Shown: in pieces, positions 1,910 through 33,782 of the stretch
Layout: each line of letters starts with the position of its first letter
Position numbering within the stretch: position 1 is the first letter of the stretch
Origin: an uncultured Selenomonadales bacterium
Lineage (GTDB): Bacteria; Bacillota; Negativicutes; Selenomonadales; Selenomonadaceae
DNA: 40,822 bases
Direction of reading: 5' to 3'
NCBI GenBank assembly: GCA_947165185.1
Contig: CAMUZL010000001.1
Span: forward strand, 1-40,822
Made by a program: the position numbers and the translations under genes
The notes under the pieces: model-generated
The model's database searches: none
Told to the model about the DNA's origin: nothing
What the model saw: only the letters and a program-made list of their open reading frames with translations

Positions 1910-4900
1910 TTATTTTCGCTTCAGTGTTGAGCCGCTGATTGAGTAATCGAATCCGTTGATCTTGAATGTTGTCGCCGTAAAATCTTTCAGCGTCAAAGCG
2001 TTGGCAGTTGAGCCGACCTTGAACGCAAGTTCTTTCTTTGAGCTGTTGTAGCTTGCAGAAAATGCGCCCGTTATCAAAAGCATGTCGGAGTTTTCAAAGC
2101 CGTAGATAACGTCTTTGCCTTCGCCTTCAAAATAAAGGAAAGTGTCCGCGCCTTTGTTGCCCCACAACGAATCGTTGCCGGAGCCGCCGTAGATGGTATC
2201 CGCGCCCGTGCCGCCGACGATCGAATTCGCCGCAGTGTTGCCCGTGATTTTAATCGCCTTCGTGCGCAAGGAAGCGTCAGCGGTTTTGATATCCGAATCG
2301 AGCGTTACGGGGGACGCGCTGGAATTGTCGAGCGTCAACACGTCCGACGAGCCGCCGCTGATAATCGTCGTGAAAATGTCGCCATACGAATCAACCAGTC
2401 GCAAAGTTTTATCTGCGCCATCTTTGACGGTCAAAGTATTTCGTCCGACGACAAATACAACGTCCGAGCCTTTGACGGAGGATTTTGAAATTGCCGCGCC
2501 GAGAGAAATTTTGTCGCCCGTCGTGTAATCGGCGATAACGTCGTTGCCTGCCTCGTAGATGAAAACGTCATTGCCCGCGCCGCCCGTGAGTGTGTCGTTA
2601 CCCGAACCGCCGTTGAGACTGTCCGCGCCCGCGTCGCCGAAAAGTTTATCGTTGCCGTTGCCGCCGAACAATTTATCGTTGCCGGAGCCGCCGTAGATGG
2701 TATCCGCGCCCGTGCCGCCGACGATCGAATTCGCCGCAGTGTTGCCCGTGATTTTAATCGCCTTCGTGCGCAAGGAAGCGTCAGCGGTTTTGATATCCGA
2801 ATCGAGCGTTACGGGGGACGCGCTGGAATTGTCGAGCGTCAACACGTCCGACGAGCCGCCGCCGATTATTGTCGTGAAACTGTCGCCGTACGAATCAATC
2901 AAGTTCAAAGTTTTGCCTTTGCCGTCTTTGATTGTCAAAGTATTTCGTCCGACGGTGAAGACAACGTCCGAGCCTTTGACGGAGGATTTTGAAATTGCCG
3001 CGCCGAGAGAAATTTTGTCGCCCGTCGTGTAATCGGTGATAACGTCGTTGCCCGCCTCGTAAATGAAAACGTCATTGCCGTTGCCGCCCGTGAGCGTGTC
3101 ATTGCCGCTGCCGCCGTTGAGCGTGTCGTTGCCCGCGTCGCCGAACAATTTATCGTTTCCGTTGCCGCCGTAAAGTGAATCATTGCCCGCCCCGCCGTAG
3201 AGCGTATCAGCCGCCGTGCCGCCGATGATTGTGTTCGCCGCAGTGTTGCCCGTGATTTTAATCGCCTTCGTGCGTGAGGAAGCGTCAGCGATTTTGACGC
3301 CCGAATCGAGCGTGACGGGGGACGCGCTGGAATTGTCGAGCGTCAACGCGTCCGACGAACCGCCGCCGCTACTGCCGATAATCGTCGTGGAACTTTTACC
3401 CGCAGAATCAATCAACTTTAAAGTTTTGCCTTTGCCGTCTTTGACGGTCAAAGTATTTCGTCCGACGACAAATACAACGTCCGAGCCTTTGACGGAGGAT
3501 TTTGAAATTGCCGCGCCGAGAGAAATTTTGTCGCCCGTCGTGTAATCGGTGATAACGTCGTTGCCCGCCTCGTAAATGAAAACGTCATTGCCGTTGCCGC
3601 CCGTGAGCGTGTCATTGCCGCTGCCGCCGTTGAGCGTGTCGTTGCCCGCGTCGCCGAACAATTTATCGTTTCCGTTGCCGCCGTAAAGTGAATCATTGCC
3701 CGCCCCGCCGTAGAGCGTATCAGCCGCCGTGCCGCCGATGATTGTGTTCGCCGCAGTGTTGCCCGTGATTTTAATCGCCTTCGTGCGTGAGGAAGCGTCA
3801 GCGATTTTGACGCCCGAATCGAGCGTGACGGGGGACGCGCTGGAATTGTCGAGCGTCAATTCGTCCGACGAGCCGCCGCCGATTATTGTCGTGAAACTGT
3901 CGCCGTACGAATCAATCAAGTTCAAAGTTTTATCCGCGCCATCTTTGACGGTCAAAGTATTTCGTCCGACGATAAAGACCACGTCCGAGCCTTTGACGGA
4001 GGAATTTGAAATATCCGCGCCGAGAGAAATTTTGTCGCCCGACGCGTAATCGGTGATAACGTCGTTGCCCGCCTCGTAGATGAAAACGTCATTGCCGCCG
4101 CCGCCCGTGAGTGTGTCGTTGCCCGTGCTGCCGTTGAGCGTGTCCGCGCCCGAACCGCCTTTGAGTGAATTTGCCGATTCGTTGCCGGTGATGTTGACGC
4201 CCGTCTTAAGCGCGGAAGCGTCGACGGTTTTGACAAGCGGGTCGAAATCCGCAAGATCAATGTCCGTGCCCGTGAATGCAGTCGACGCCGTCAAAATTGA
4301 GCGCGAAGAATTGTAGCTCAAGCCTTCCGGTAACTCGTCGTCGGGTGTGCCGTCCGAATAATTTTTCGCGAAGTAACGAAACACGGCGTAATTGTAAGCT
4401 AAACCGTAATAAAAATGAGCGTAATCAGTAGTAGAAGAATCGTCGTAGCCGCCGACAATTTGCCACAGACCCATGGGAATGTCAGACGGCAATTTTTCGG
4501 GGTAATACAAATTCGCATCCAAGGCCATTTCGGTGAACGCCTGCAAGAAAAGCCTGTCGAGATAATTTGTATACTGGTAGTAGTTGTTGCTGAACCGGGA
4601 GTAGAGACTGTTGGCATAATAACTGTTGACGTCGCCGTTTTTGTCGGTATCCGCAAGCGTATAAAGTTTACTGGCGTCAATATTCAGCGTTAAAGCCGAG
4701 ACACGTCCCACGTCATAGGAAGTGTCCAAACGCATGAGATTACTATACCCAGATGAATCATAAAAACCACCGTTCACAAATTTTATGTCGATTTCGTTGA
4801 CGCTTGCCCGCCCGTCCGTGAAGTTAATTCCGAGCGATTCATTGATGAGATCGAGAGCTTCAGGCAACCACCAGTTGTAAAGATTTTTCACGACGAGCTT

Positions 4901-5323
4901 TTGTTTCGCCAAGTAATTTTCGCCGTCGTAACCGAAATTTTCGCCCGGGGAATTATTCGTGACGTATTGGATATTAACGGTGAGTCCGTTTTTCGTGAAG
5001 GAATTGTATTCGTCGTCGGTGAGTTCTTTGGCGGCGGCGGTTTCGGGAATGATTGTGTCGACGGTTTTGGTTGTCTTGCCGCCCGCGTCCGAGCCGGTGA
5101 TCGCGCCGGTGTCTTTGTTGTTGAGCCGAACGCCGCATTTTTGCTCAAGAAAATCTTGTTGCGAGAGATCGCTTTTCGCGCCTTCAAATTCTCTGAGGAA
5201 AGCGGAATAGCCTCCGCTTATGCCGAAATTTTTTAAAGCTTCGTCGACGGCTTCAGTGCCGGTTTTCGTCGTCTTCGTCAAGGAATCGACAAGTTTTTTA
5301 ATGATGCCGACCGGCGTAGACAT
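1910..5323 (-). CDS. RTX/beta-roll repeat protein, paralog A (1137 aa): N-terminal degenerate gluzincin-like domain plus 5 RTX modules and the family C-terminal module
   Basis: Canonical nonapeptides GGxGxDxUx (LYGGAGNDSLYGGNGNDKLFGDAGNDTLNGGSGNDTLTGGNGND). GGAG at 5333-5336 fits the ATG at 5323 (9-nt spacing) better than the ATG at 5332. No signal peptide. Confidence 0.9.
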   Translation of the reverse strand: MSTPVGIIKKLVDSLTKTTKTGTEAVDEALKNFGISGGYSAFLREFEGAKSDLSQQDFLEQKCGVRLNNKDTGAITGSDAGGKTTKTVDTIIPETAAAKELTDDEYNSFTKNGLTVNIQYVTNNSPGENFGYDGENYLAKQKLVVKNLYNWWLPEALDLINESLGINFTDGRASVNEIDIKFVNGGFYDSSGYSNLMRLDTSYDVGRVSALTLNIDASKLYTLADTDKNGDVNSYYANSLYSRFSNNYYQYTNYLDRLFLQAFTEMALDANLYYPEKLPSDIPMGLWQIVGGYDDSSTTDYAHFYYGLAYNYAVFRYFAKNYSDGTPDDELPEGLSYNSSRSILTASTAFTGTDIDLADFDPLVKTVDASALKTGVNITGNESANSLKGGSGADTLNGSTGNDTLTGGGGNDVFIYEAGNDVITDYASGDKISLGADISNSSVKGSDVVFIVGRNTLTVKDGADKTLNLIDSYGDSFTTIIGGGSSDELTLDNSSASPVTLDSGVKIADASSRTKAIKITGNTAANTIIGGTAADTLYGGAGNDSLYGGNGNDKLFGDAGNDTLNGGSGNDTLTGGNGNDVFIYEAGNDVITDYTTGDKISLGAAISKSSVKGSDVVFVVGRNTLTVKDGKGKTLKLIDSAGKSSTTIIGSSGGGSSDALTLDNSSASPVTLDSGVKIADASSRTKAIKITGNTAANTIIGGTAADTLYGGAGNDSLYGGNGNDKLFGDAGNDTLNGGSGNDTLTGGNGNDVFIYEAGNDVITDYTTGDKISLGAAISKSSVKGSDVVFTVGRNTLTIKDGKGKTLNLIDSYGDSFTTIIGGGSSDVLTLDNSSASPVTLDSDIKTADASLRTKAIKITGNTAANSIVGGTGADTIYGGSGNDKLFGGNGNDKLFGDAGADSLNGGSGNDTLTGGAGNDVFIYEAGNDVIADYTTGDKISLGAAISKSSVKGSDVVFVVGRNTLTVKDGADKTLRLVDSYGDIFTTIISGGSSDVLTLDNSSASPVTLDSDIKTADASLRTKAIKITGNTAANSIVGGTGADTIYGGSGNDSLWGNKGADTFLYFEGEGKDVIYGFENSDMLLITGAFSASYNSSKKELAFKVGSTANALTLKDFTATTFKINGFDYSISGSTLKRK
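2170..4240 (-). repeat. in-frame tandem repeats, period 504-519 bp, about 5 copies (RTX module plus spacer domain)
   Basis: 2171-2358 is identical to 2675-2862 (188 bp, offset 504). 2961-3346 is identical to 3474-3859 (386 bp, offset 513). Confidence 0.9.
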
Positions 5324-5479
5324 AAAAACCATCTCCTTTCAAAATAAACAAACCAAAATCAAGAGTGTAACCTTGCTATAAATCTAATTTATTCGTTGGA
5401 ATTTTTCAAGTGATTAAACTGTGACAAATAGTATCATTTTTTCTGACGGCACTGTCGGCTATTGCCTCGCAAGGTTTGC

Positions 5480-5530: not shown

Positions 5531-8500
5531 TCAACTTTTTACGAGTTTGGTGCCGCTGATTTTGTAATCGTCGCCGTTGATATTGAAAGTTGTCGCCGTG
5601 AAATCGCGTAAAGTAATCGCGCTTGCCGTCGACCCGACTTTAAACGCAATTTGATTCTTTGACTTGTTGTAACTCGCCGAGAACGCGCCGGTAATTTCGA
5701 GCATGTCGGTATCGTCGAATCCGAAGATGACATCTTTGCCGTCGCCGCTTGAGTAGATGAAGGTGTCCGCGCCCGCGTCGCCCCAGAGTGAATCGTTGCC
5801 CGCGCCGCCCCAGAGCGAATCGCTGCCTGCGCCGCCGTAGAGTAAATCGTTGCCGACTTCGCCGAAAAGTTTATCGTTGCCGTTGCCGCCGCGAAGTGTA
5901 TCGGCACCTTTGCCGCCGTAAAGCGAATCATTTTTCGAGCCGCCGACGATTGAGTTTGCCAAATCGTTGCCGGTAATTTGAATTGCCTTCGTGCGTTTGG
6001 AGGCGTCCGCAGTTTTGTACGACGAGCCGAGCGTAACTTTCGCGCTTGAAGAATCGCTGTAAGTGAAAACGTCGCCGCCGAAAATCGTCGAAGACTCTTT
6101 ACCTGCAGAATCAATCAGATTGAGCGTCTTACCCTTGCCGTTTTTGACGGTGAGCGAGCCGCTGCCGATTGTGAAGACAACGTCGGAGCCTTTGACGGAG
6201 GATTTAGAAATCGCCGCGCCGAGAGAAATTTTATCGCCCGTCGCGTAATCTGCAATGACATCTTTGCCCGCGCTGTAGATGAAAATGTCATCACCGTCGC
6301 CGCCCGTGAGCGTGTCGTTACCCGTGCCGCCCGAAAGTAAATCGTTGCCGACTTCGCCGAAAAGTTTATCATTGCCGCTACCGCCGCGAAGTGTGTCGGC
6401 ACCTTTGCCGCCGTAAAGCGAATCATTTTTCGAGCCGCCGACGATTGAGTTTGCCAAATCGTTGCCGGTAATTTGAATTGCCTTAGTGCGTTTTGAGGCG
6501 TCCGCAGTTTTGTATGACGAGCCGAGCGTAACTTTCGCGCTTGAAGAATTGCTGTAAGTGAAAACGTCATTGCCGAAAATTGTCGAAGATTCTTTGCCCG
6601 CCGAATCAATCAAGTTGAGCGTTTTACCTTTGCCGTTTTTGACGGTGAGCGAACCGCTTCCGATTGTAAAGATAACGTCGGCGCCTTTAACGGAGGATTT
6701 TGAAATTGCCGCGCCGAGAGAAATTTTGTCGCCCGTCGCATAATCCAAAATGACATCCTTGCCCGCGCTGTAGATGAAAATGTCATCACCGTCGCCGCCC
6801 GTGAGCGTGTCGTTACCCGTGCCGCCCGAAAGTAAATCGTTGCCGACTTCGCCGAAAAGTTTATCATTGCCGCTACCGCCGCGAAGTGTGTCGGCACCTT
6901 TGCCGCCGTAAAGCGAATCATTTTTCGAGCCGCCGACGATTGAGTTTGCCAAATCGTTGCCGGTAATTTGAATTGCCTTAGTGCGTTTTGAGGCGTCCGC
7001 AGTTTTGTATGACGAGCCGAGCGTAACTTTCGCGCTTGAAGAATTGCTGTAAGTGAAAACGTCATTGCCGAAAATTGTCGAAGATTCTTTGCCCGCCGAA
7101 TCAATCAAGTTGAGCGTTTTACCTTTGCCGTTTTTGACGGTGAGCGAACCGCTTCCGATTGTGAAGACAACGTCGGAGCCTTTGACGGAGGATTTAGAAA
7201 TCGCCGCGCCGAGAGAAATTTTGTCGCCCGTCGCATAATCGGCGATAACATCTTTGCCCGCGCTGTAAATGAAAACGTCGTTGCCATCACCGCCCGTCAA
7301 AGTGTCATTACCTGCACCGCCCCAGAGGAAATCGTTGCCGACTTCGCCGTAAAGTTTGTCATTGCCCGCGTTGCCGAGAATTGAGTCGTTACCTTTGCCG
7401 CCGTAAAGCGAATCATTTTTCGAACCGCCGACGATTGAGTTTGCCAAAGCGTTGCCCGTGATTTTGACTGCTTTCGTGCGTTTGGAGGCGTCGACAGTTT
7501 CAACAGCCGAGCCGATTGTTACGGGCGAAGAAGTTTTGTCGGTGACGGTTAATTTTGTCGGATCTGTCTGCTTGCCGATTACGTTGACAGACGACAAACT
7601 CGCCGCGCCTTGCAAAGTTATCTTACCCGTGCCGACCGTGACGATAACGTCGTTGCCGCTCTTCGTCGAAGAATAATCGCTACCCGAAATTGACAACGTT
7701 GACGTAGCGTTAAAGCCTTCGATAATGTCATTGCCGTTGCCGCTTGAATATTGGAAGATAACTTTGTTGCCGCGATTTTTGATTGTGTCGTTGCCCGCGC
7801 CGCCGATTATTTTTGAGTTGTCGCCGTTGTAATTGCTGTCGTTGGAGGCATAAAAATAGTTCCCCGACTCATGGTAGCGATAGCCGTTGTAAATCAAATC
7901 GTCGTTGTCGCCGCCGTCGAGCACGGAGTTGGAGCCGTGGCTTGTGATTGTGTCGTTGCCGTTGCCGCCCGTGACGGAAAAATTCTTGCCGCCGCGTTCG
8001 CTTTCAAAATAGCCGCCGTTGACGATTATGTCATTGTTATCGCCGCCGTCAACCGAAACCGAATTGCCGTAGTTGTAGACAGAATCATTGTCAGAGCCCG
8101 CGCTTATTAAAACGCTGTTGCCGCGATTTGTAATTTTATCATTGCCTCTGCCGCCGATTATTGTCGAGTTGTCGCCGTTGTAATTGCTGTCGTTGGAATC
8201 GTAAAAATAATTTCCCGATGCGTAGTAGCGATAGCCGTTGTAAATCAAATCGTCGTTGTCGCCGCCGTCGAGCACGGAGTTGGAGCCGTGGCTTGTGATT
8301 GTGTCGTTGCCGTTGCCGCCCGTGACGGAAAAATTCTTGCCGCCGCGTTCGCTTTCAAAATAGCCGCCGTTGACGATTATGTCATTGTTATCGCCGCCGT
8401 CAACCGAAACCGAATTGCCGTAGTTGTAGACAGAATCATTGTCAGAGCCCGCGCTTATTAAAACGCTGTTGCCGCGATTTGTAATTTTATCATTGCCTCT

Positions 8501-29141: not shown

Positions 29142-29361
29142 TGCCGACGCATTTGCGTGACGCAAATTCCGTCGGCCAAAAAGTTTCACGACAACATTTA
29201 GGATTTACGAAAACGCAGTCCTCGCCCGCCGCGTAGGCGGCAACGTAGACGTTGCATCCAATTTGGGTTGGCGTTTTCGTTTAAAAGGCGAATCGGCTAT
29301 CCAAACTGTTCCCCCCGCTTTTAAAGCGGGTCTTTGCCGTCAAAGAAAAGTAACATAAAAA

Positions 29362-29811
29362 CTACCAGCGCAATTTCCGTTGCCACGCCAGCAAATCTTT
29401 TTTGCTCAGCGGCAAATCAATCGACTGCCCGTTGTCGTAATAAAATTTTACGCGCACTTCTTTGGCGACAAGCAAATCTTTCAAGCTCGATTTCGGCAGG
29501 TGAACAAAAAATTTATTTTCGTTGCGCAAACCTTTGGAAGTTTGTTTCGTGATAATATCCAACTCCCACGGCGCGCCGTCCGTGAAAAGAATCGCCTTGT
29601 TTAAAAGTTTCGACTTGTCGTAACGATAATCCCACAAACTCAGCGTTGCACTTTCCCAATTTCCGTCGCCGTCGCGGGCAACTTGAAATTCCGTCGCCGC
29701 GTACTTGTCCAGAGTGTCGGCTTCGCGGTGGTCATAATGCCAAGTGTAGCTTGCGCCGAAAATTCCCAGCAGAATCAGCGAAACGCCCACCCCCAACAAA
29801 ATTTTTTGCAT
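29362..29811 (-). CDS. hypothetical membrane-anchored protein (149 aa)
   Basis: GGAGGT RBS and ATG at 29811. One N-terminal hydrophobic helix (ILLGVGVSLILLGIFGASY). No recognisable motif. Confidence 0.55.
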   Translation of the reverse strand: MQKILLGVGVSLILLGIFGASYTWHYDHREADTLDKYAATEFQVARDGDGNWESATLSLWDYRYDKSKLLNKAILFTDGAPWELDIITKQTSKGLRNENKFFVHLPKSSLKDLLVAKEVRVKFYYDNGQSIDLPLSKKDLLAWQRKLRW

Positions 29812-29830
29812 GACCGACCTCCGCTTTTGC

Positions 29831-29880
29831 TTTACATTTCGCTCGTTCTTATAGTACAATACGCACGGTGTATTTTTCAA
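29831..29880. promoter_or_regulatory. overlapping divergent sigma70-like promoters
   Basis: Plus strand: TTTACA (29831-29836), 18 nt, TACAAT (29855-29860). Minus strand: TTGAAA (29880-29875), 18 nt, TACTAT (29856-29851). Confidence 0.4.
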
Positions 29881-29905
29881 TAATTTTTTCGGGGGGAGTT
29901 CTTTT

Positions 29906-30286
29906 ATGCTCAGACCGCGCTTTGATGACGAAGAAGAAGTTTATATTCCGGAGATAGGCGAAGACGATTCCGATTTCAACATGCACGACCGCATTCCGCA
30001 TTCCAACGCGGGCATTGCACTCGGTTGGTCGGCTCTCGAACAACAAATGTTCGACATGCTTTTGTTAAATCGTTTTGCAGCCGACGATCAAGAATTGCTT
30101 GACGAGACGGCGCGCACAATTTCCCGACTGGTTGAAACTTTCGAGGCTCACGAAATCGCCCGCATCATGTCGGTGGCGATGATGTCATTTCAGCTTGCCG
30201 CCGCCGAAGAAAAATCTTTCGAGGACGAATACAACAAGTACCGCGATTATATCAAGAAACACCCCGAAGACGTGGAAGAAATTTAA
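29906..30286 (+). CDS. hypothetical acidic protein (126 aa)
   Basis: GGGGGAG RBS 8 nt upstream, and the gene is followed by its own terminator. No recognisable motif. Confidence 0.55.
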   Translation: MLRPRFDDEEEVYIPEIGEDDSDFNMHDRIPHSNAGIALGWSALEQQMFDMLLLNRFAADDQELLDETARTISRLVETFEAHEIARIMSVAMMSFQLAAAEEKSFEDEYNKYRDYIKKHPEDVEEI

Positions 30287-30310
30287 ACGTTCGGCAATCG
30301 GATTGAAACG

Positions 30311-30346
30311 AAGTCGCAGGATTCTTTCGGCGGCTTATTTTTTTTT
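30311..30346 (+). terminator. rho-independent terminator
   Basis: aagtcgc (30311-30317) pairs with gcggctt (30330-30336, one G-U pair), followed by a and T9. Confidence 0.65.
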
Positions 30347-30412
30347 GAGAGGTATTAATTTGGCTTTACCAATAATGCGCCACGAAAGATATGAAGTGGC
30401 ACAAAAAAATTC

Positions 30413-30441
30413 TTGTCATGCTTTAATCGTCCTTATATAAT
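30413..30441 (+). promoter_or_regulatory. near-consensus sigma70 promoter with no downstream ORF
   Basis: TTGTCA (30413-30418), a 17-nt spacer, then TATAAT (30436-30441). Confidence 0.55.
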
Positions 30442-30447
30442 AAGAAA

Positions 30448-30746
30448 AATTTTTTGAATATGAGTGGTGAATAATTTTTGGGGACAGACCAGTCGTTAAA
30501 GGCAGTTCAAACTCTACCCGGACGACCAGTAAAACAGCTGTAGCAGCGGCCGAGCCTTTCGACCCCTGTCGCCCACCACAACGCCAAGATGGAGGAGACC
30601 CCATCAGACTTCGCTTTCATTAGAAGCTTTGGTTGTTGATAACGGAATCCGCCGGCTTTTGCCGTGGGGAGTATGTCAAGGCAAATTTTATATAAGCGCA
30701 CGATCTGCGTGATTATTATCCCGTCACGGCGACGGGATATTTTTTT
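30448..30746 (+). ncRNA. candidate structured small RNA of unknown class (~300 nt, promoter to terminator)
   Basis: Bounded by the promoter above and a plus-strand terminator (8-bp stem 30718-30725 / 30731-30738 plus a T-run 30740-30746). Long helix: 30480-30487 pairs with 30566-30574, and 30492-30503 pairs with 30554-30563. Hairpin 30588-30605 is capped by a GAGA tetraloop. No ORF with an RBS. Locally GC-rich. Confidence 0.45.
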
Positions 30747-30815: not shown

Positions 30816-33782
30816 TCATTTGCTCAGCGTCTTGCCGTTGATGTGATAAATTTCGCCGTTGATATTGAAGGTCGACGAAGAATCAACGCCGCTGAAAATA
30901 ATTTTGCCGCCGCCTTTAACGTTGAGCGTCAGATTGCTGCTTGAAAATGTCGCCTTGGTGAACTTGCCCGTTGAGCCGTCCGCGTTGAGAATTTGCAACA
31001 GATCATCTTCCGCGAAGTCGAAAATTTTATCGGTGCCGCTGTTCGCGAAGTAAACGAACGTGTCGGAGCCGTCGCCGCCCCAAAGTGAATCGTTGCCCGC
31101 ACAGCCGTTGATTGTCGAACCTGCGTCGCCCGCGTAAATTTTATTGGCCTTGGCGTTGCCGGTGATGTCGGTGACGTTGCCCGTTGCGGTGAAATTGGTT
31201 TTCGACGAACCGAGCGTCGCGGAAGTTTTGCCCGCGTCGTAAAAAATTCCGCCGTCAAAAATTTTCGTTCCGTCATTATCCGTAAAGGTGACTGTCGACG
31301 AATCTTTGACGGTGATTTTTTTTGAGCCGACTTTTAAGTAAGTGTTGCCGCTTGAAACGGAGCCGTCCGAAACCGCGCCCGTGATTGATAAGTTATCGTC
31401 CGCGCCGAAATTCATCAAAGTATCGTTGCCGCCCTTCGCCCAGATAAAAATATTTTCGTCGCCGAGGTAAATTTTGTTCGCTTTGGAATTGCCTTTAATC
31501 GTCGCGTTTGAAGTCAAGCCCGCGTTAATCGTGACAATGTTTGAATCCGCCGTGTAATTTTTCGTCGACGCGCTCAAGGTAACCGCCGTGCCCGCCGTGT
31601 TTAAAATTTCGTCGTCCGTGAAAATATTCGCCGTGGTCTTGCCGCCCGAAACGAGAGAAATTTTTTTGCCCGCGCCGTTGGCAATCGTCACTGAACCTTC
31701 GGCAAGGTTGAGCACAACATTTCCGCCCGTGACGGAAAAATTTTCGAGTGACGAACTCAACGAAATTTTGTCGTAACCTGTGCCGTAATCTGTGATGAAA
31801 TCGTTGCCGCCCGCCGTGACAAAGGTGTCGTTGCCCGTGCCGCCCGTCAAAGTCGCGCCCGCCGCGTTTGAAATAATTTTGTTGGCTTTGGAATTGCCGA
31901 TAATGGAAATAATTCCGTCCTCCGCCGTGTAGTTGCTTGCCGACGAGCCGAGCGTTGCGGAAGTTTTTGCCGCGTCGTAAAAAATTCCGCTGTCGAAAAT
32001 TTTTATGCCGCTTGAATCGGCGAACGTGACGAGCGAAGAATTTTTGACGGTGATTTTATTCGAGCCGACTTTTAAATAAGTTGTGCCGCTTGAAACAGAG
32101 CCGTCCGAAACCGCGCCCGCGATTGAAATTAAATCGTCCGTGCCGAAATTGTAAAGCGTGTCGTTGCCGCCTTTTGCCCAGACGAAAACATTTTCCGCGC
32201 CGAGTGAAACTTTATTGGCTATGGAATTTCCGTTGATTGTCGCGTTTGAAGTCAAGCCCGCGTCAATCGTGACAACTTTTGAATCCGCCGCGAAATTTTT
32301 TGTCGACGCGCTCAACGTGACGGAAGTGCCCGCCGAATTAAAAATCCCGTCGTCCGAATAAATTTTGCCGGAAGTGACGGAAATTTTTTTGTCCGCCGCG
32401 CCCGTCAAAATCAACGAGCCGTTATCAAATTCAAAAACAAAATCATCGCCGTTCGCGCCGAAATTTTTCAGCTGAGCCGAGCCGATTGAAATTTTGTCGT
32501 TGCCCGTGCCGTAGTCCGTGACGGTATCGTTGCCCGCGCTCCAAATGAAAATGTCCGCGCCGGTGCCGCCCGTCAAAACGTCGTCGCCTTTGCCGCCGTC
32601 GAGCGTGTCGGAATTTTTTCCGCCCGTGATTGTGTTGGCAAGCGCGTTGCCCGTAATTTTAACTGCCTTCGTGCGCGTGGAGGCGTCAACAACTTTAATC
32701 GCGGAATTTATCGTGACGGGCGAACTTGTCGAGTCTGTGACGGTCAAAGTTGTACTCGCCACAGTGTCGTTGTCCGTGCCGCCGCTCACCGTGCCCGTGC
32801 CGGTCGAGTTGGCAGCCTGATAAGCAAGGTAGCGCAGGAAAATATATCCGCCCGCGTAACTCGCCGAAGTGACGCCCGAAACGCTGACGGTGTTCGTGTT
32901 CAAGACAATCGCTTGACTAAGTTTCGTTGACGAGCCTGCCAAAGTTTTCAGCGAAGCCGAGCGCGTGTCGTCGATGCCGTGCGTTAAATCCGCCATACCT
33001 TCCTTGAGGAACGCGGGCAGATAATCAAACCAATCGATATTCGCACGCATGACGGCATGGGTCAATTCGTGCGCGATTGTTCGGTCGAGATATTTTTGCC
33101 CGTTGTTCGACTCGCCGTCTTCGCCCGAAACATTTCCGTAATAGTACGTGTTGATGTGGAGCTTTAAATCGTTCGTGGATTTCTGCGCGTTGCCGGGACC
33201 GCCCCACGTCACCGCCAAAGAGCCCGCGCCTTCGTCGGCAAGGACAACCCAAAGCGTTTTGGTGACGGCGGAACTTTTGGAAGTGAAGCTGTAATTTTCA
33301 CCGTAACTTTCGGCAATGAGGTCAAGTCCGCCCGCAAGCCACCACGTGTAAAACGACTGCCAAATATAAATTTCGTTGTCGCTCAAGTCGCTGAAACTTC
33401 TTGCAACGGTTTTGCCCTCGGAATCGACTTGCCCCAGCTTGACGGTCAGTCCGTTCGTCGTGAAAGAATCGCCCGTGAAATTTATAAGCGCGCTGCTTTC
33501 GGGCACGATTGATTCAGCAGTCTTGACAGTCGAGCCGCCCGCGTCCGCGCCGGTTATCGCGCCCGTGTCGGAGTTGTCCAAAATTATTCCGCAGTAATTT
33601 CGCAAAAAATTATCGGCACTGCCCGCAGTTTTGCAATCGCTCAAAAGTTGCGCACGAAAATCCGCGTAGCTTGAAAAATTCGAGACAGCCGAAATCGCCG
33701 CGTCCAAAGCGTCTTCGCCTTTTTCGGTCGTCGTGTCCAAAATCGCCATGAAATTTTTTATAACGTCCTGTTGAGTCGCCAT
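30816..33782 (-). CDS. RTX-family paralog E (988 aa): N-terminal HExxH gluzincin-like domain, short RTX block, beta-rich repeats and the family C-terminal module
   Basis: HELTH at 33057-33071 followed by EGMAD. GGKNSDTLDGGKGDDVLTGGTGADIF nonapeptides. GGGAGGGA RBS before the ATG at 33782. Confidence 0.88.
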   Translation of the reverse strand: MATQQDVIKNFMAILDTTTEKGEDALDAAISAVSNFSSYADFRAQLLSDCKTAGSADNFLRNYCGIILDNSDTGAITGADAGGSTVKTAESIVPESSALINFTGDSFTTNGLTVKLGQVDSEGKTVARSFSDLSDNEIYIWQSFYTWWLAGGLDLIAESYGENYSFTSKSSAVTKTLWVVLADEGAGSLAVTWGGPGNAQKSTNDLKLHINTYYYGNVSGEDGESNNGQKYLDRTIAHELTHAVMRANIDWFDYLPAFLKEGMADLTHGIDDTRSASLKTLAGSSTKLSQAIVLNTNTVSVSGVTSASYAGGYIFLRYLAYQAANSTGTGTVSGGTDNDTVASTTLTVTDSTSSPVTINSAIKVVDASTRTKAVKITGNALANTITGGKNSDTLDGGKGDDVLTGGTGADIFIWSAGNDTVTDYGTGNDKISIGSAQLKNFGANGDDFVFEFDNGSLILTGAADKKISVTSGKIYSDDGIFNSAGTSVTLSASTKNFAADSKVVTIDAGLTSNATINGNSIANKVSLGAENVFVWAKGGNDTLYNFGTDDLISIAGAVSDGSVSSGTTYLKVGSNKITVKNSSLVTFADSSGIKIFDSGIFYDAAKTSATLGSSASNYTAEDGIISIIGNSKANKIISNAAGATLTGGTGNDTFVTAGGNDFITDYGTGYDKISLSSSLENFSVTGGNVVLNLAEGSVTIANGAGKKISLVSGGKTTANIFTDDEILNTAGTAVTLSASTKNYTADSNIVTINAGLTSNATIKGNSKANKIYLGDENIFIWAKGGNDTLMNFGADDNLSITGAVSDGSVSSGNTYLKVGSKKITVKDSSTVTFTDNDGTKIFDGGIFYDAGKTSATLGSSKTNFTATGNVTDITGNAKANKIYAGDAGSTINGCAGNDSLWGGDGSDTFVYFANSGTDKIFDFAEDDLLQILNADGSTGKFTKATFSSSNLTLNVKGGGKIIFSGVDSSSTFNINGEIYHINGKTLSK
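31000..32480 (-). repeat. diverged in-frame duplication, period 738 bp (246 aa)
   Basis: gtcgacgcg landmarks at 31564 and 32302. Protein segments (A/S)VTLSASTKN(F/Y)..DS..VTI(D/N)AGLTSNATI.GNS...SSGxTYLKVGSxKITVK occur twice. Confidence 0.75.

Follow-up and report, generated by a model that had tools for sequence, protein, structure and literature searches.

Among the insertion sequences (IS) of the IS200/IS605 family, IS608 of Helicobacter pylori inserts 3' of the tetranucleotide TTAC, which is its left cleavage site, and is cleaved on the right at TCAA, 10 nt from the right palindrome (PMC3201880). The RNA that guides the nuclease TnpB, known as omega-RNA or right-end element RNA (reRNA), is formed by the 3' end of tnpB plus the right end of the element and closes with ~16 nt of flank, which direct the nuclease to a target flanked by a transposon-associated motif (TAM) (PMC8612924). 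Gene-less palindrome-associated transposable elements (PATEs) 'often encode omega-RNAs', which are necessarily used in trans by the TnpB of other elements (Meers et al. 2023, 10.1101/2023.03.14.532601), and a PATE-derived RNA has been reported in Halobacterium (PMC4615843). Here, we describe an element of this already known kind, and not a new RNA class, in a 40,822-nt stretch of DNA from an uncultured Selenomonadales bacterium (GCA_947165185.1, contig CAMUZL010000001.1), hereafter the window, whose positions are used throughout. The locus had been described, in an original prediction made from the letters of the window, as an orphan promoter-to-terminator unit encoding a structured RNA of ~300 nt and of unknown class. 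In our reading, positions 30370-30679 (+ strand) are probably a 310-bp, gene-less derivative of an IS200/IS605 (IS608-type) element that keeps the former tnpB promoter and the omega-RNA region.

The evidence begins with a family of copies. An exact 19-mer from the apical region of the unit was present at three loci (L013, L014 and L015) in two Selenomonadales metagenome-assembled genomes (MAGs); a further match in a Pirellulales sequence (L016) is a chance 19-mer match. Translation of the open antisense frame of L014 followed by a search of the protein collection led to L017, L018 and L019-L021, a sense-frame protein search led to L022, and a 20-mer scan of metagenomes led to L024. Nothing was returned by blastn of the region against plasmid and phage collections, by a purine/pyrimidine-degenerate pattern of the long helix run over metagenome and genome contigs, or by a conserved k-mer scan of viral contigs. 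In total, there are eight short copies of 310-426 bp, and the seven besides that of the window (L013, L014, L015, L017, L018, L022 and L024) measure 376-426 bp and come from rumen Selenomonadaceae. They lie at unrelated loci (beside gltX and a LysR gene, glgB, Fic/WYL genes and others), and one MAG holds two.

All copies share sharp limits. Similarity starts directly after TTAC in six of the eight and after TTAT in L017 and L022, and the right boundary reads ...GTATGTCAA, i.e. ...GGGGAGT(A/T)TGTCAA. In the window, these limits of similarity to the seven other copies enclose 30370-30679, a whole, PATE-like and tnpB-less element. Mean identity within the transcribed part is 0.86-0.91, against pairwise identities of 0.43 in the left flank (a stretch that includes TTAC) and 0.32 in the right. 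The surrounding 470-nt interval sits between two synteny blocks and is unconserved in place on both sides. On the left, similarity to relatives spans 29351-30344 and ends at the terminator of a 126-aa gene, after which the relatives carry a different gene; on the right, similarity to the RTX homologues of relatives ends exactly at the RTX stop codon, 30815.

These boundaries bear directly on the terminator that was said to close the unit. A plus-strand intrinsic terminator is present (30717-30746), with a 9-bp stem at 30717-30739 followed by T7 instead of the 8-bp stem first placed at 30718-30738, and the stop codon of the convergent RTX-repeat gene (30816-33782, 988 aa) lies 69 nt beyond its end. 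However, it cannot be taken as the 3' end of an RNA gene: it is host DNA outside the conserved block, the other copies have no conserved equivalent, and they continue into unrelated sequence. Seen together, the promoter, the region without an open reading frame (ORF) and the terminator gave a 'promoter-to-terminator unit' in which a mobile element is joined to a terminator of the host. An ORF-free region bracketed in this way, together with the lack of any Rfam match, would fit a new class of small RNA whose gene stands alone in the chromosome and extends from the promoter to the terminator at 30746. We regard such a gene as highly improbable, as the boundary and copy data already contradict it. 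That is, the conserved unit stops at 30679, 38 nt short of the terminator stem; the sequence downstream is unrelated between copies; the block has IS200/IS605 ends, copies at multiple loci and tnpB-bearing relatives; and the closest relatives, as judged from both sides, do not have it at this locus.

The ends themselves point to the IS608 type. TTAC in the left flank (30366-30369, + strand) is the predicted insertion target and left cleavage site as well as the expected TnpB TAM. Inside each end lies a subterminal hairpin whose pairing is conserved through compensatory changes, and the two ends are not inverted repeats of each other. The left hairpin, recognized in the alignments (GCGCCAC...GUGGCAC, 30377-30402, + strand), differs from the consensus GCGGCGU...ACGCCGC by three pairs altered on both sides with pairing kept, and the apex is shortened by 19 nt relative to the other copies. 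The right hairpin (30648-30670, + strand) has compensatory changes in four of its nine pairs; it is the hairpin correctly noticed before at 30649-30667, now placed as a transposon end. TCAA (30676-30679, + strand), the putative cleavage motif with which the element closes on the right, ends 10 nt past the foot of this hairpin and is invariant in 11 of 11 elements, with similarity ending after it. There is no target duplication, and the right flanks do not repeat TTAC. IS608 shares the TTAC target, the TCAA right end 10 nt after the right hairpin, the subterminal hairpins and the lack of target duplication. On the other hand, the distance from TTAC to the left hairpin is 7 nt here and 19 nt in IS608, the window element carries neither tnpA nor tnpB, and it has no detectable sequence similarity to IS608.

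Inspection of the ORFs agreed that none preceded by a ribosome-binding site (RBS) lies between promoter and terminator, and no credible ORF lies inside the 310 bp. An exact look-up of the region's spurious ORFs in the protein collection showed that no gene had ever been called there. Two candidates were rejected: a small protein from frame 1, whose ORF has a start codon in just two of the eight copies, and an antisense ORF, the ends of which vary between copies. No tnpA or tnpB was found in the element or in the window. Because it has no gene for TnpA or TnpB, while the same-ended L019 and L026 encode TnpB, the window copy is a non-autonomous derivative and not an autonomous IS.

The link to tnpB is provided by relatives that still carry the gene. 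In L019, ~1.2 kb lie between a left end that is 96% identical to that of the short elements and a final 118 nt that are 91.5% identical to theirs, and this stretch encodes TnpB (PF01385 OrfB_IS605 plus PF07282 Cas12f1-like_TNB). A tblastn search with the L019 protein led to an intact 369-aa 'RNA-guided endonuclease TnpB family protein' (WP_008540208.1, 56% identity) on a plasmid of Megamonas funiformis JCM 14723 (NZ_CP048628.1). The Megamonas element belongs to the same bacterial family and has homologous ends, with TTAC followed by CAATAACGCCG... (CAATAAC...) on the left and ...GGAGTATGTCAA on the right; TTAC likewise precedes L019. It shares the scaffold hairpins a and b and the right-end hairpin with the copy family (the window copy is without a), and it differs in its intact TnpB, in the absence of the hairpin domain that we call P1 (see below) and in being too diverged for blastn. 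A second, decayed element of ~780 bp is found in L015 (4417-5190, - strand), on the contig of the short copy and ~2.9 kb away from it, with a TTAT flank, an N-terminal tnpB fragment and a right end reading ...GAGTTTGTCAA. Given that full-length tnpB elements, this ~780-bp copy and the short copies are all known, a deletion series exists. As a side note, the tnpB of L019 (4333-5442, - strand) has a TAG between ...IIINN and AYRYFKS..., which is either a fresh pseudogene mutation or a recoded stop.

What the short elements kept from tnpB includes its promoter. The promoter was found as claimed at 30413-30441 (TTGTCA-17-TATAAT, + strand), with the -35 at 30413-30418, the -10 at 30436-30441 and a predicted start at ~30448, and it is the sole 11/12 match to a sigma-70 promoter on either strand of the entire 40.8-kb window. 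L019 has TTGAAA-17-TATAAT ahead of tnpB, aligned with the promoter of the short elements. Just downstream, GAGAGGTGA(n)GTG/ATA of the short elements aligns with the RBS and start codon of the L019 tnpB; in the window this relic reads GAGUGGUGAAUAA (30462-30474, + strand) and aligns with GAGGTGATGATAAATG, the RBS plus ATG of L019. Since both the promoter and the RBS relic align with L019, the short elements are tnpB deletion derivatives that retained the promoter. The window copy has no usable start codon, and an in-frame GTG is found in L015 and L022 only. Across the family, the -10 TATAAT is invariant (8/8 copies), with a TTG-type -35 placed 17-18 nt before it in six (window, L014, L015, L024, L018 and L017); in L013 the -35 region is gone, and L022 has a partial match. 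The spacer sequence between the hexamers has diverged between copies.

A promoter that points out of the right end could also be of use in itself. That is, the element might be a mobile outward promoter or regulatory insertion, with read-out running antisense to the RTX gene that it faces in the window and sense into the LysR gene in L013, where the element ends 17 nt ahead of the start codon. We give this explanation a very small chance: a strong host terminator stands between the element and the RTX gene, and the downstream contexts are inconsistent, with the L014 copy followed by a terminator of its own and the L015 copy by a gene that has its own promoter. Separately, base pairing between the terminal UGUCAA of the element and UUGACA in the flank is possible in L013 (2245-2273) and would place the GGAG RBS of the regulator in the loop.

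Under the preferred reading, an omega-RNA derivative, the promoter would drive an RNA that ends in a TnpB scaffold. The last ~115 nt before TCAA can be aligned across tnpB-bearing and tnpB-less elements and contain three hairpins. By analogy with described systems, this ~115-nt right end is in the position expected of the TnpB omega-RNA/reRNA scaffold. L019 and the Megamonas element have right ends to which 30606-30679 of the window can be aligned, on the tnpB-sense strand. Covariation was tested in the eight short copies for the whole RNA and in 11 elements for the right-end scaffold. For the whole RNA, RNAalifold gave 11 helices in which eight of 64 pairs are compensatory, against 3.7 +/- 1.2 in shuffles (1/500). 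For the scaffold, both partners had changed in 10 of 19 pairs, compared with 4.3 +/- 1.3 after shuffling (0/500) and 1-3 with slid partners. Two of the three covarying scaffold hairpins are internal and are not the transposase-binding palindrome. In particular, hairpin b (CUUC...GAAG, 30609-30626, + strand) covaries across the 11 elements with three of four pairs changed on both sides, and its variants include CUUC/GAAG, CUUAA/UUAAG, CCCCG/CGGGG and CUGCUA/UAGUAG. The right-end hairpin has two predicted roles: it is the putative recognition hairpin of TnpA and the putative last stem of the omega-RNA scaffold. The long-range helix that closes the central domain (30579-30638, + strand; CAACGCC at 30579-30585 with GGUUGUUG at 30631-30638; RNAalifold helix 5) is nearly invariant and consequently draws no support from covariation.

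The central domain of the window copy is cut down to two hairpins. One of these, GAUGGAGGAGACCCCAUC (30588-30605, + strand), had been singled out as a hairpin capped by a GNRA tetraloop; it is real and appears in the predicted fold, but it is found in the window copy only and marks the junction of an internal deletion. It replaces ~95-100 nt (helices 6-8) of the seven other short copies, and the deletion lies between two AGGAG repeats. The window copy does not hold a complete scaffold. With this loss and that of the left-hairpin apex, it may be crippled or no longer serve TnpB.

Directly after TCAA, the ~16-20 nt of flanking DNA at the omega-RNA guide position (30680-30699, + strand) differ in every copy, as a guide would have to, and are unique in the window, and by position they may act as the guide. 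The proposed mechanism is as follows. Having lost tnpB and without tnpA, the element still has both subterminal hairpins, on which a Y1 transposase (TnpA) supplied elsewhere would depend to mobilize it. Its RNA would start at ~30448 with a short A/U leader, proceed through P1, the central domain and the right-end scaffold and then run across 30679 into host DNA, where the first ~16-20 flanking bases (30680-~30699) would serve as guide; in the window, the transcript would be halted at the host terminator (30717-30746), ahead of the RTX gene. After excision of the element by TnpA, a TnpB encoded elsewhere, presumably with this RNA bound, would cut the empty TTAC-plus-flank site, and recombination would then reinstate the element.

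Compared with the omega-RNA/reRNA of ISDra2 (Karvelis et al. 2021, PMC8612924), the orientation and the position relative to the right end are the same, the scaffold is homologous to that of tnpB elements of the same family, and a copy-specific flank stands at the guide position. The differences are that tnpB is not present in cis, that the RNA has its own promoter, that its predicted length is ~230 nt here and ~330 nt in the other copies (ISDra2 TnpB binds ~150 nt), that the scaffold of the window copy is incomplete and that there is no match to IS605-orfB-I (RF03065) or HgcC (RF00062). With PATEs, the element shares IS200/IS605 ends, the lack of a protein gene, the multiple copies and an RNA-coding right end for a TnpB made elsewhere. 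It differs from them in retaining a strong former tnpB promoter, which gives the RNA a predicted transcription start of its own, in its extra ~100-nt P1, not found in the tnpB-bearing relatives, and in its host, an uncultured member of the rumen Selenomonadaceae.

Whether the RNA is maintained by selection can be addressed by how the copies differ. Next to the well-conserved transcribed scaffold, identity is 0.73 in the left end, 0.66 in the leader and 0.60 in the promoter region. It could be that the copy is an inert IS relic, the transcript a by-product, and the similarity of copies a sign of recent spread rather than of selection. Two internal deletions in the window copy, the stop codon in the tnpB of L019, the decayed 780-bp copy in L015 and the rarity of the family (few matches in the genome and metagenome scans) all agree with this, and we consider it unlikely. 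Recent spread does not readily explain why conservation is so uneven (0.86-0.91 in the scaffold, 0.60-0.66 in promoter and leader), why the promoter hexamers are kept while the spacers diverge, why pairing in the left stem of the window survives three double changes or why helices covary. The contrast between conserved hexamers and scaffold on the one hand and diverged spacer and leader on the other argues that expression and the RNA are under selection and that recent copying is not the whole explanation.

The part of the RNA that does not follow from described systems is P1, an interrupted hairpin domain of ~100 nt (30479-30575, + strand) defined by fold and alignment. It is the most conserved part of the element (mean identity 0.91), with 34 nt that are invariant in six of the eight copies and show one A-to-G change in L013 and L024. 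Its closing pair U30479-A30575 is C-G in these two copies, and a second pair alternates between G-C and A-U. Part of P1 had been described as a long interrupted helix, and the minimum free energy fold does contain it (GGGGACAG/CUGUCgCCC, GUCG/CGAC and AAAGGC/GCCUUU). However, the inner GUCG/CGAC stem is specific to the window; GGCG replaces GUCG in the other copies and leaves a mismatch in this stem. P1 is GC-rich, unlike tnpB coding DNA, and the claim of a GC-rich interior was confirmed (0.59 at 30500-30599 against 0.29-0.31 immediately upstream). P1 is intact in the window copy despite the scaffold deletion. It matches no Rfam family, and its only homologues are in these elements.

A possible origin for P1 would be the tail of tnpB. 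Frame 1 is open through P1 in all copies, its stop is aligned with the tnpB stop of L019, and the indels are of 6 and 9 nt. In a global alignment with the last 190 nt of the L019 tnpB, P1 scores weakly above shuffles (z 2.0-2.8), and in a local alignment the similarity is not significant. P1 as the tail of a known TnpB was set aside on these alignments together with a protein search that returned only the ORF of another short element. P1 may be a diverged 5' part of the scaffold or an acquired module.

Several observations count against our interpretation of the element as an omega-RNA derivative. The covariation statistics are modest and come from only 8-11 sequences, and the end hairpins could be selected as single-stranded DNA instead of as RNA. 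Neither tnpA nor tnpB lies in the window, which is the part of the source genome that was covered. The window copy is without helices 6-8 and, with them, hairpin a, which all ten other elements have. Predicted folds are no stabler than shuffled sequences (z 0 to -1.5), L019, the only closely related tnpB found, carries one in-frame TAG, and P1 is absent from the tnpB-bearing relatives found (L019 and Megamonas) and from the ~780-bp copy of L015. To these are added the weakness of the similarity between P1 and the end of the L019 tnpB and the fact that no TnpB with a P1-like C-terminal tail was found among 1.8 billion representative proteins, the sole match being the ORF of another short element.

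Some of these points could also make a case for P1 itself. In such an explanation, the element carries P1 around as cargo, an RNA with an independent function (5' stabilizing or processing, or protein-binding), and the omega-RNA part is secondary. Being the most conserved segment, GC-rich and with two covarying pairs, missing from L019, Megamonas and the 780-bp copy, and intact in the window copy in spite of the scaffold loss, P1 would suit this role. We hold it to be improbable, given that P1 has neither an Rfam match nor a homologue beyond these elements and that its open frame 1, its aligned stop and its 6- and 9-nt indels fit a tnpB tail. A related idea, to which we attach a similarly small, if marginally better, chance, is that P1 is an undescribed functional RNA module and the real cargo of the gene-less elements, either as a 5' domain that stabilizes or processes the RNA of a 'guide-only' TnpB parasite or as a TnpB-independent RNA. 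If true, it would explain both the top conservation of P1 and its survival in a copy that has lost a third of the omega-RNA scaffold.

The family was also compared with known RNAs. At the gathering score, an Rfam covariance scan of the window and of L013-L015 gave no match, and at E <= 10 there were chance matches only. The models without a match include IS605-orfB-I (RF03065), HgcC (RF00062), HEARO (RF02033), 6S, riboswitches and T-box. The earlier view that the unit is not transfer-messenger RNA (tmRNA), RNase P or signal recognition particle RNA holds, with no Rfam match for any of them. Two resemblances were followed up and rejected. One was a tRNA- or tmRNA-like end (GGGG...CCCACCA), for which ARAGORN was negative; 'ACCA' is not a tRNA-like end because its A30575 pairs with U30479 and covaries to G, with C as its partner, in L013 and L024. 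The other was a set of RNase P-like motifs (ACGACCAGU..AACAG), which are not collinear with RNase P and have no Rfam match at E <= 10. A weak match to HgcC (16.6 bits against a gathering score of 50) was seen in the right-end scaffold of L019 (4199-4317, - strand) and is confined to that right end. HgcC has been linked earlier to the right ends of IS1341-type tnpB elements (PMC4615843).

Riboswitches and T-boxes were rejected as well, with none found even at E = 10, and this bears on a last alternative. The unit might be the leader of a riboswitch or attenuator left behind by rearrangement, with GCCGUGGGGA (30660-30669) as antiterminator against the hairpin at 30717. The length is that of a leader, and 30660-30669 is partially complementary to 30719-30731. 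The likelihood of this is negligible on the boundary data: the stretch proposed as antiterminator belongs to the conserved right-end hairpin, of which it is the 3' half, and the terminator is copy-specific host DNA.

The original prediction was thus right about a promoter-driven, structured, non-coding unit, to which the seven further copies add conservation; its transcription is a prediction, drawn from the promoter. One of its hairpins (30686-30700) did not survive, as there is at best weak A/U pairing there and folding puts a hairpin at 30696-30710 instead. The fold is of ordinary stability (z = -1.5 for the RNA of 299 nt, -1.56 for the long hairpin), and the opposite strand of the unit folds equally well. 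That the unit is more than chance rests on its conservation in the seven further copies, not on thermodynamic stability.

An apparent new class of ~300-nt RNA thus probably resolves into a transposon-derived guide-RNA unit, and genome scans for orphan structured RNAs should expect such units often. The element adds a bacterial case, from rumen Selenomonadaceae, of a gene-less IS200/IS605 derivative with a strong promoter apparently dedicated to the omega-RNA, and lends support to the view that guide RNAs can survive and spread by parasitizing TnpB encoded elsewhere. Natural scaffold variants, such as the ~95-nt deletion in the window copy and the intact relative in the cultured Megamonas funiformis, could offer a way to establish how small the scaffold of this TnpB lineage can be. 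Of the parts of the element, P1 alone has no explanation in current knowledge.

With regard to the host locus, in an uncultured rumen genome of Selenomonadaceae/Quinella-like affinity, the flanks of the element read ...GGCTTTAC on the left and GGCAAATTTT... on the right, and the predicted uninterrupted site is the two joined. No empty site could be recovered from synteny with relatives. The gaps downstream of the RTX homologues in L011 and L012 hold unrelated sequence, namely a tandem repeat array and a tRNA gene, respectively. In L011 (9304-9815, between the RTX homologue and folD) there are about three tandem copies of a ~125-nt unit, each carrying, in reverse complement, an RBS-plus-ATG-like motif (GGAGGTTTGAACATGTCGG), and also a small hairpin with a T run after it; in L012, the tRNA gene lies at 3643-3716.

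To the left of the element, a divergent pair of small genes (29362-29880, - strand, and 29906-30286, + strand) has no Pfam match and is conserved in relatives, where the two genes are kept together amid rearranged surroundings. The 126-aa protein is 87-95% identical across more than 100 rumen contigs (222 matches). In L001, a cobalamin riboswitch (2992-3165, 74 bits) lies beside this conserved pair. The window is also rich in RTX-repeat (HemolysinCabind) genes, with five in 40 kb, all on the minus strand (1910-5332, 5531-11032, 11229-16748, 16974-18386 and 30816-33782). Two neighbouring RTX ORFs are of ~1830 aa each and contain long internal repeats, and the 988-aa RTX protein downstream of the element is a singleton at 90% identity and has an HExxH motif near residue 250.

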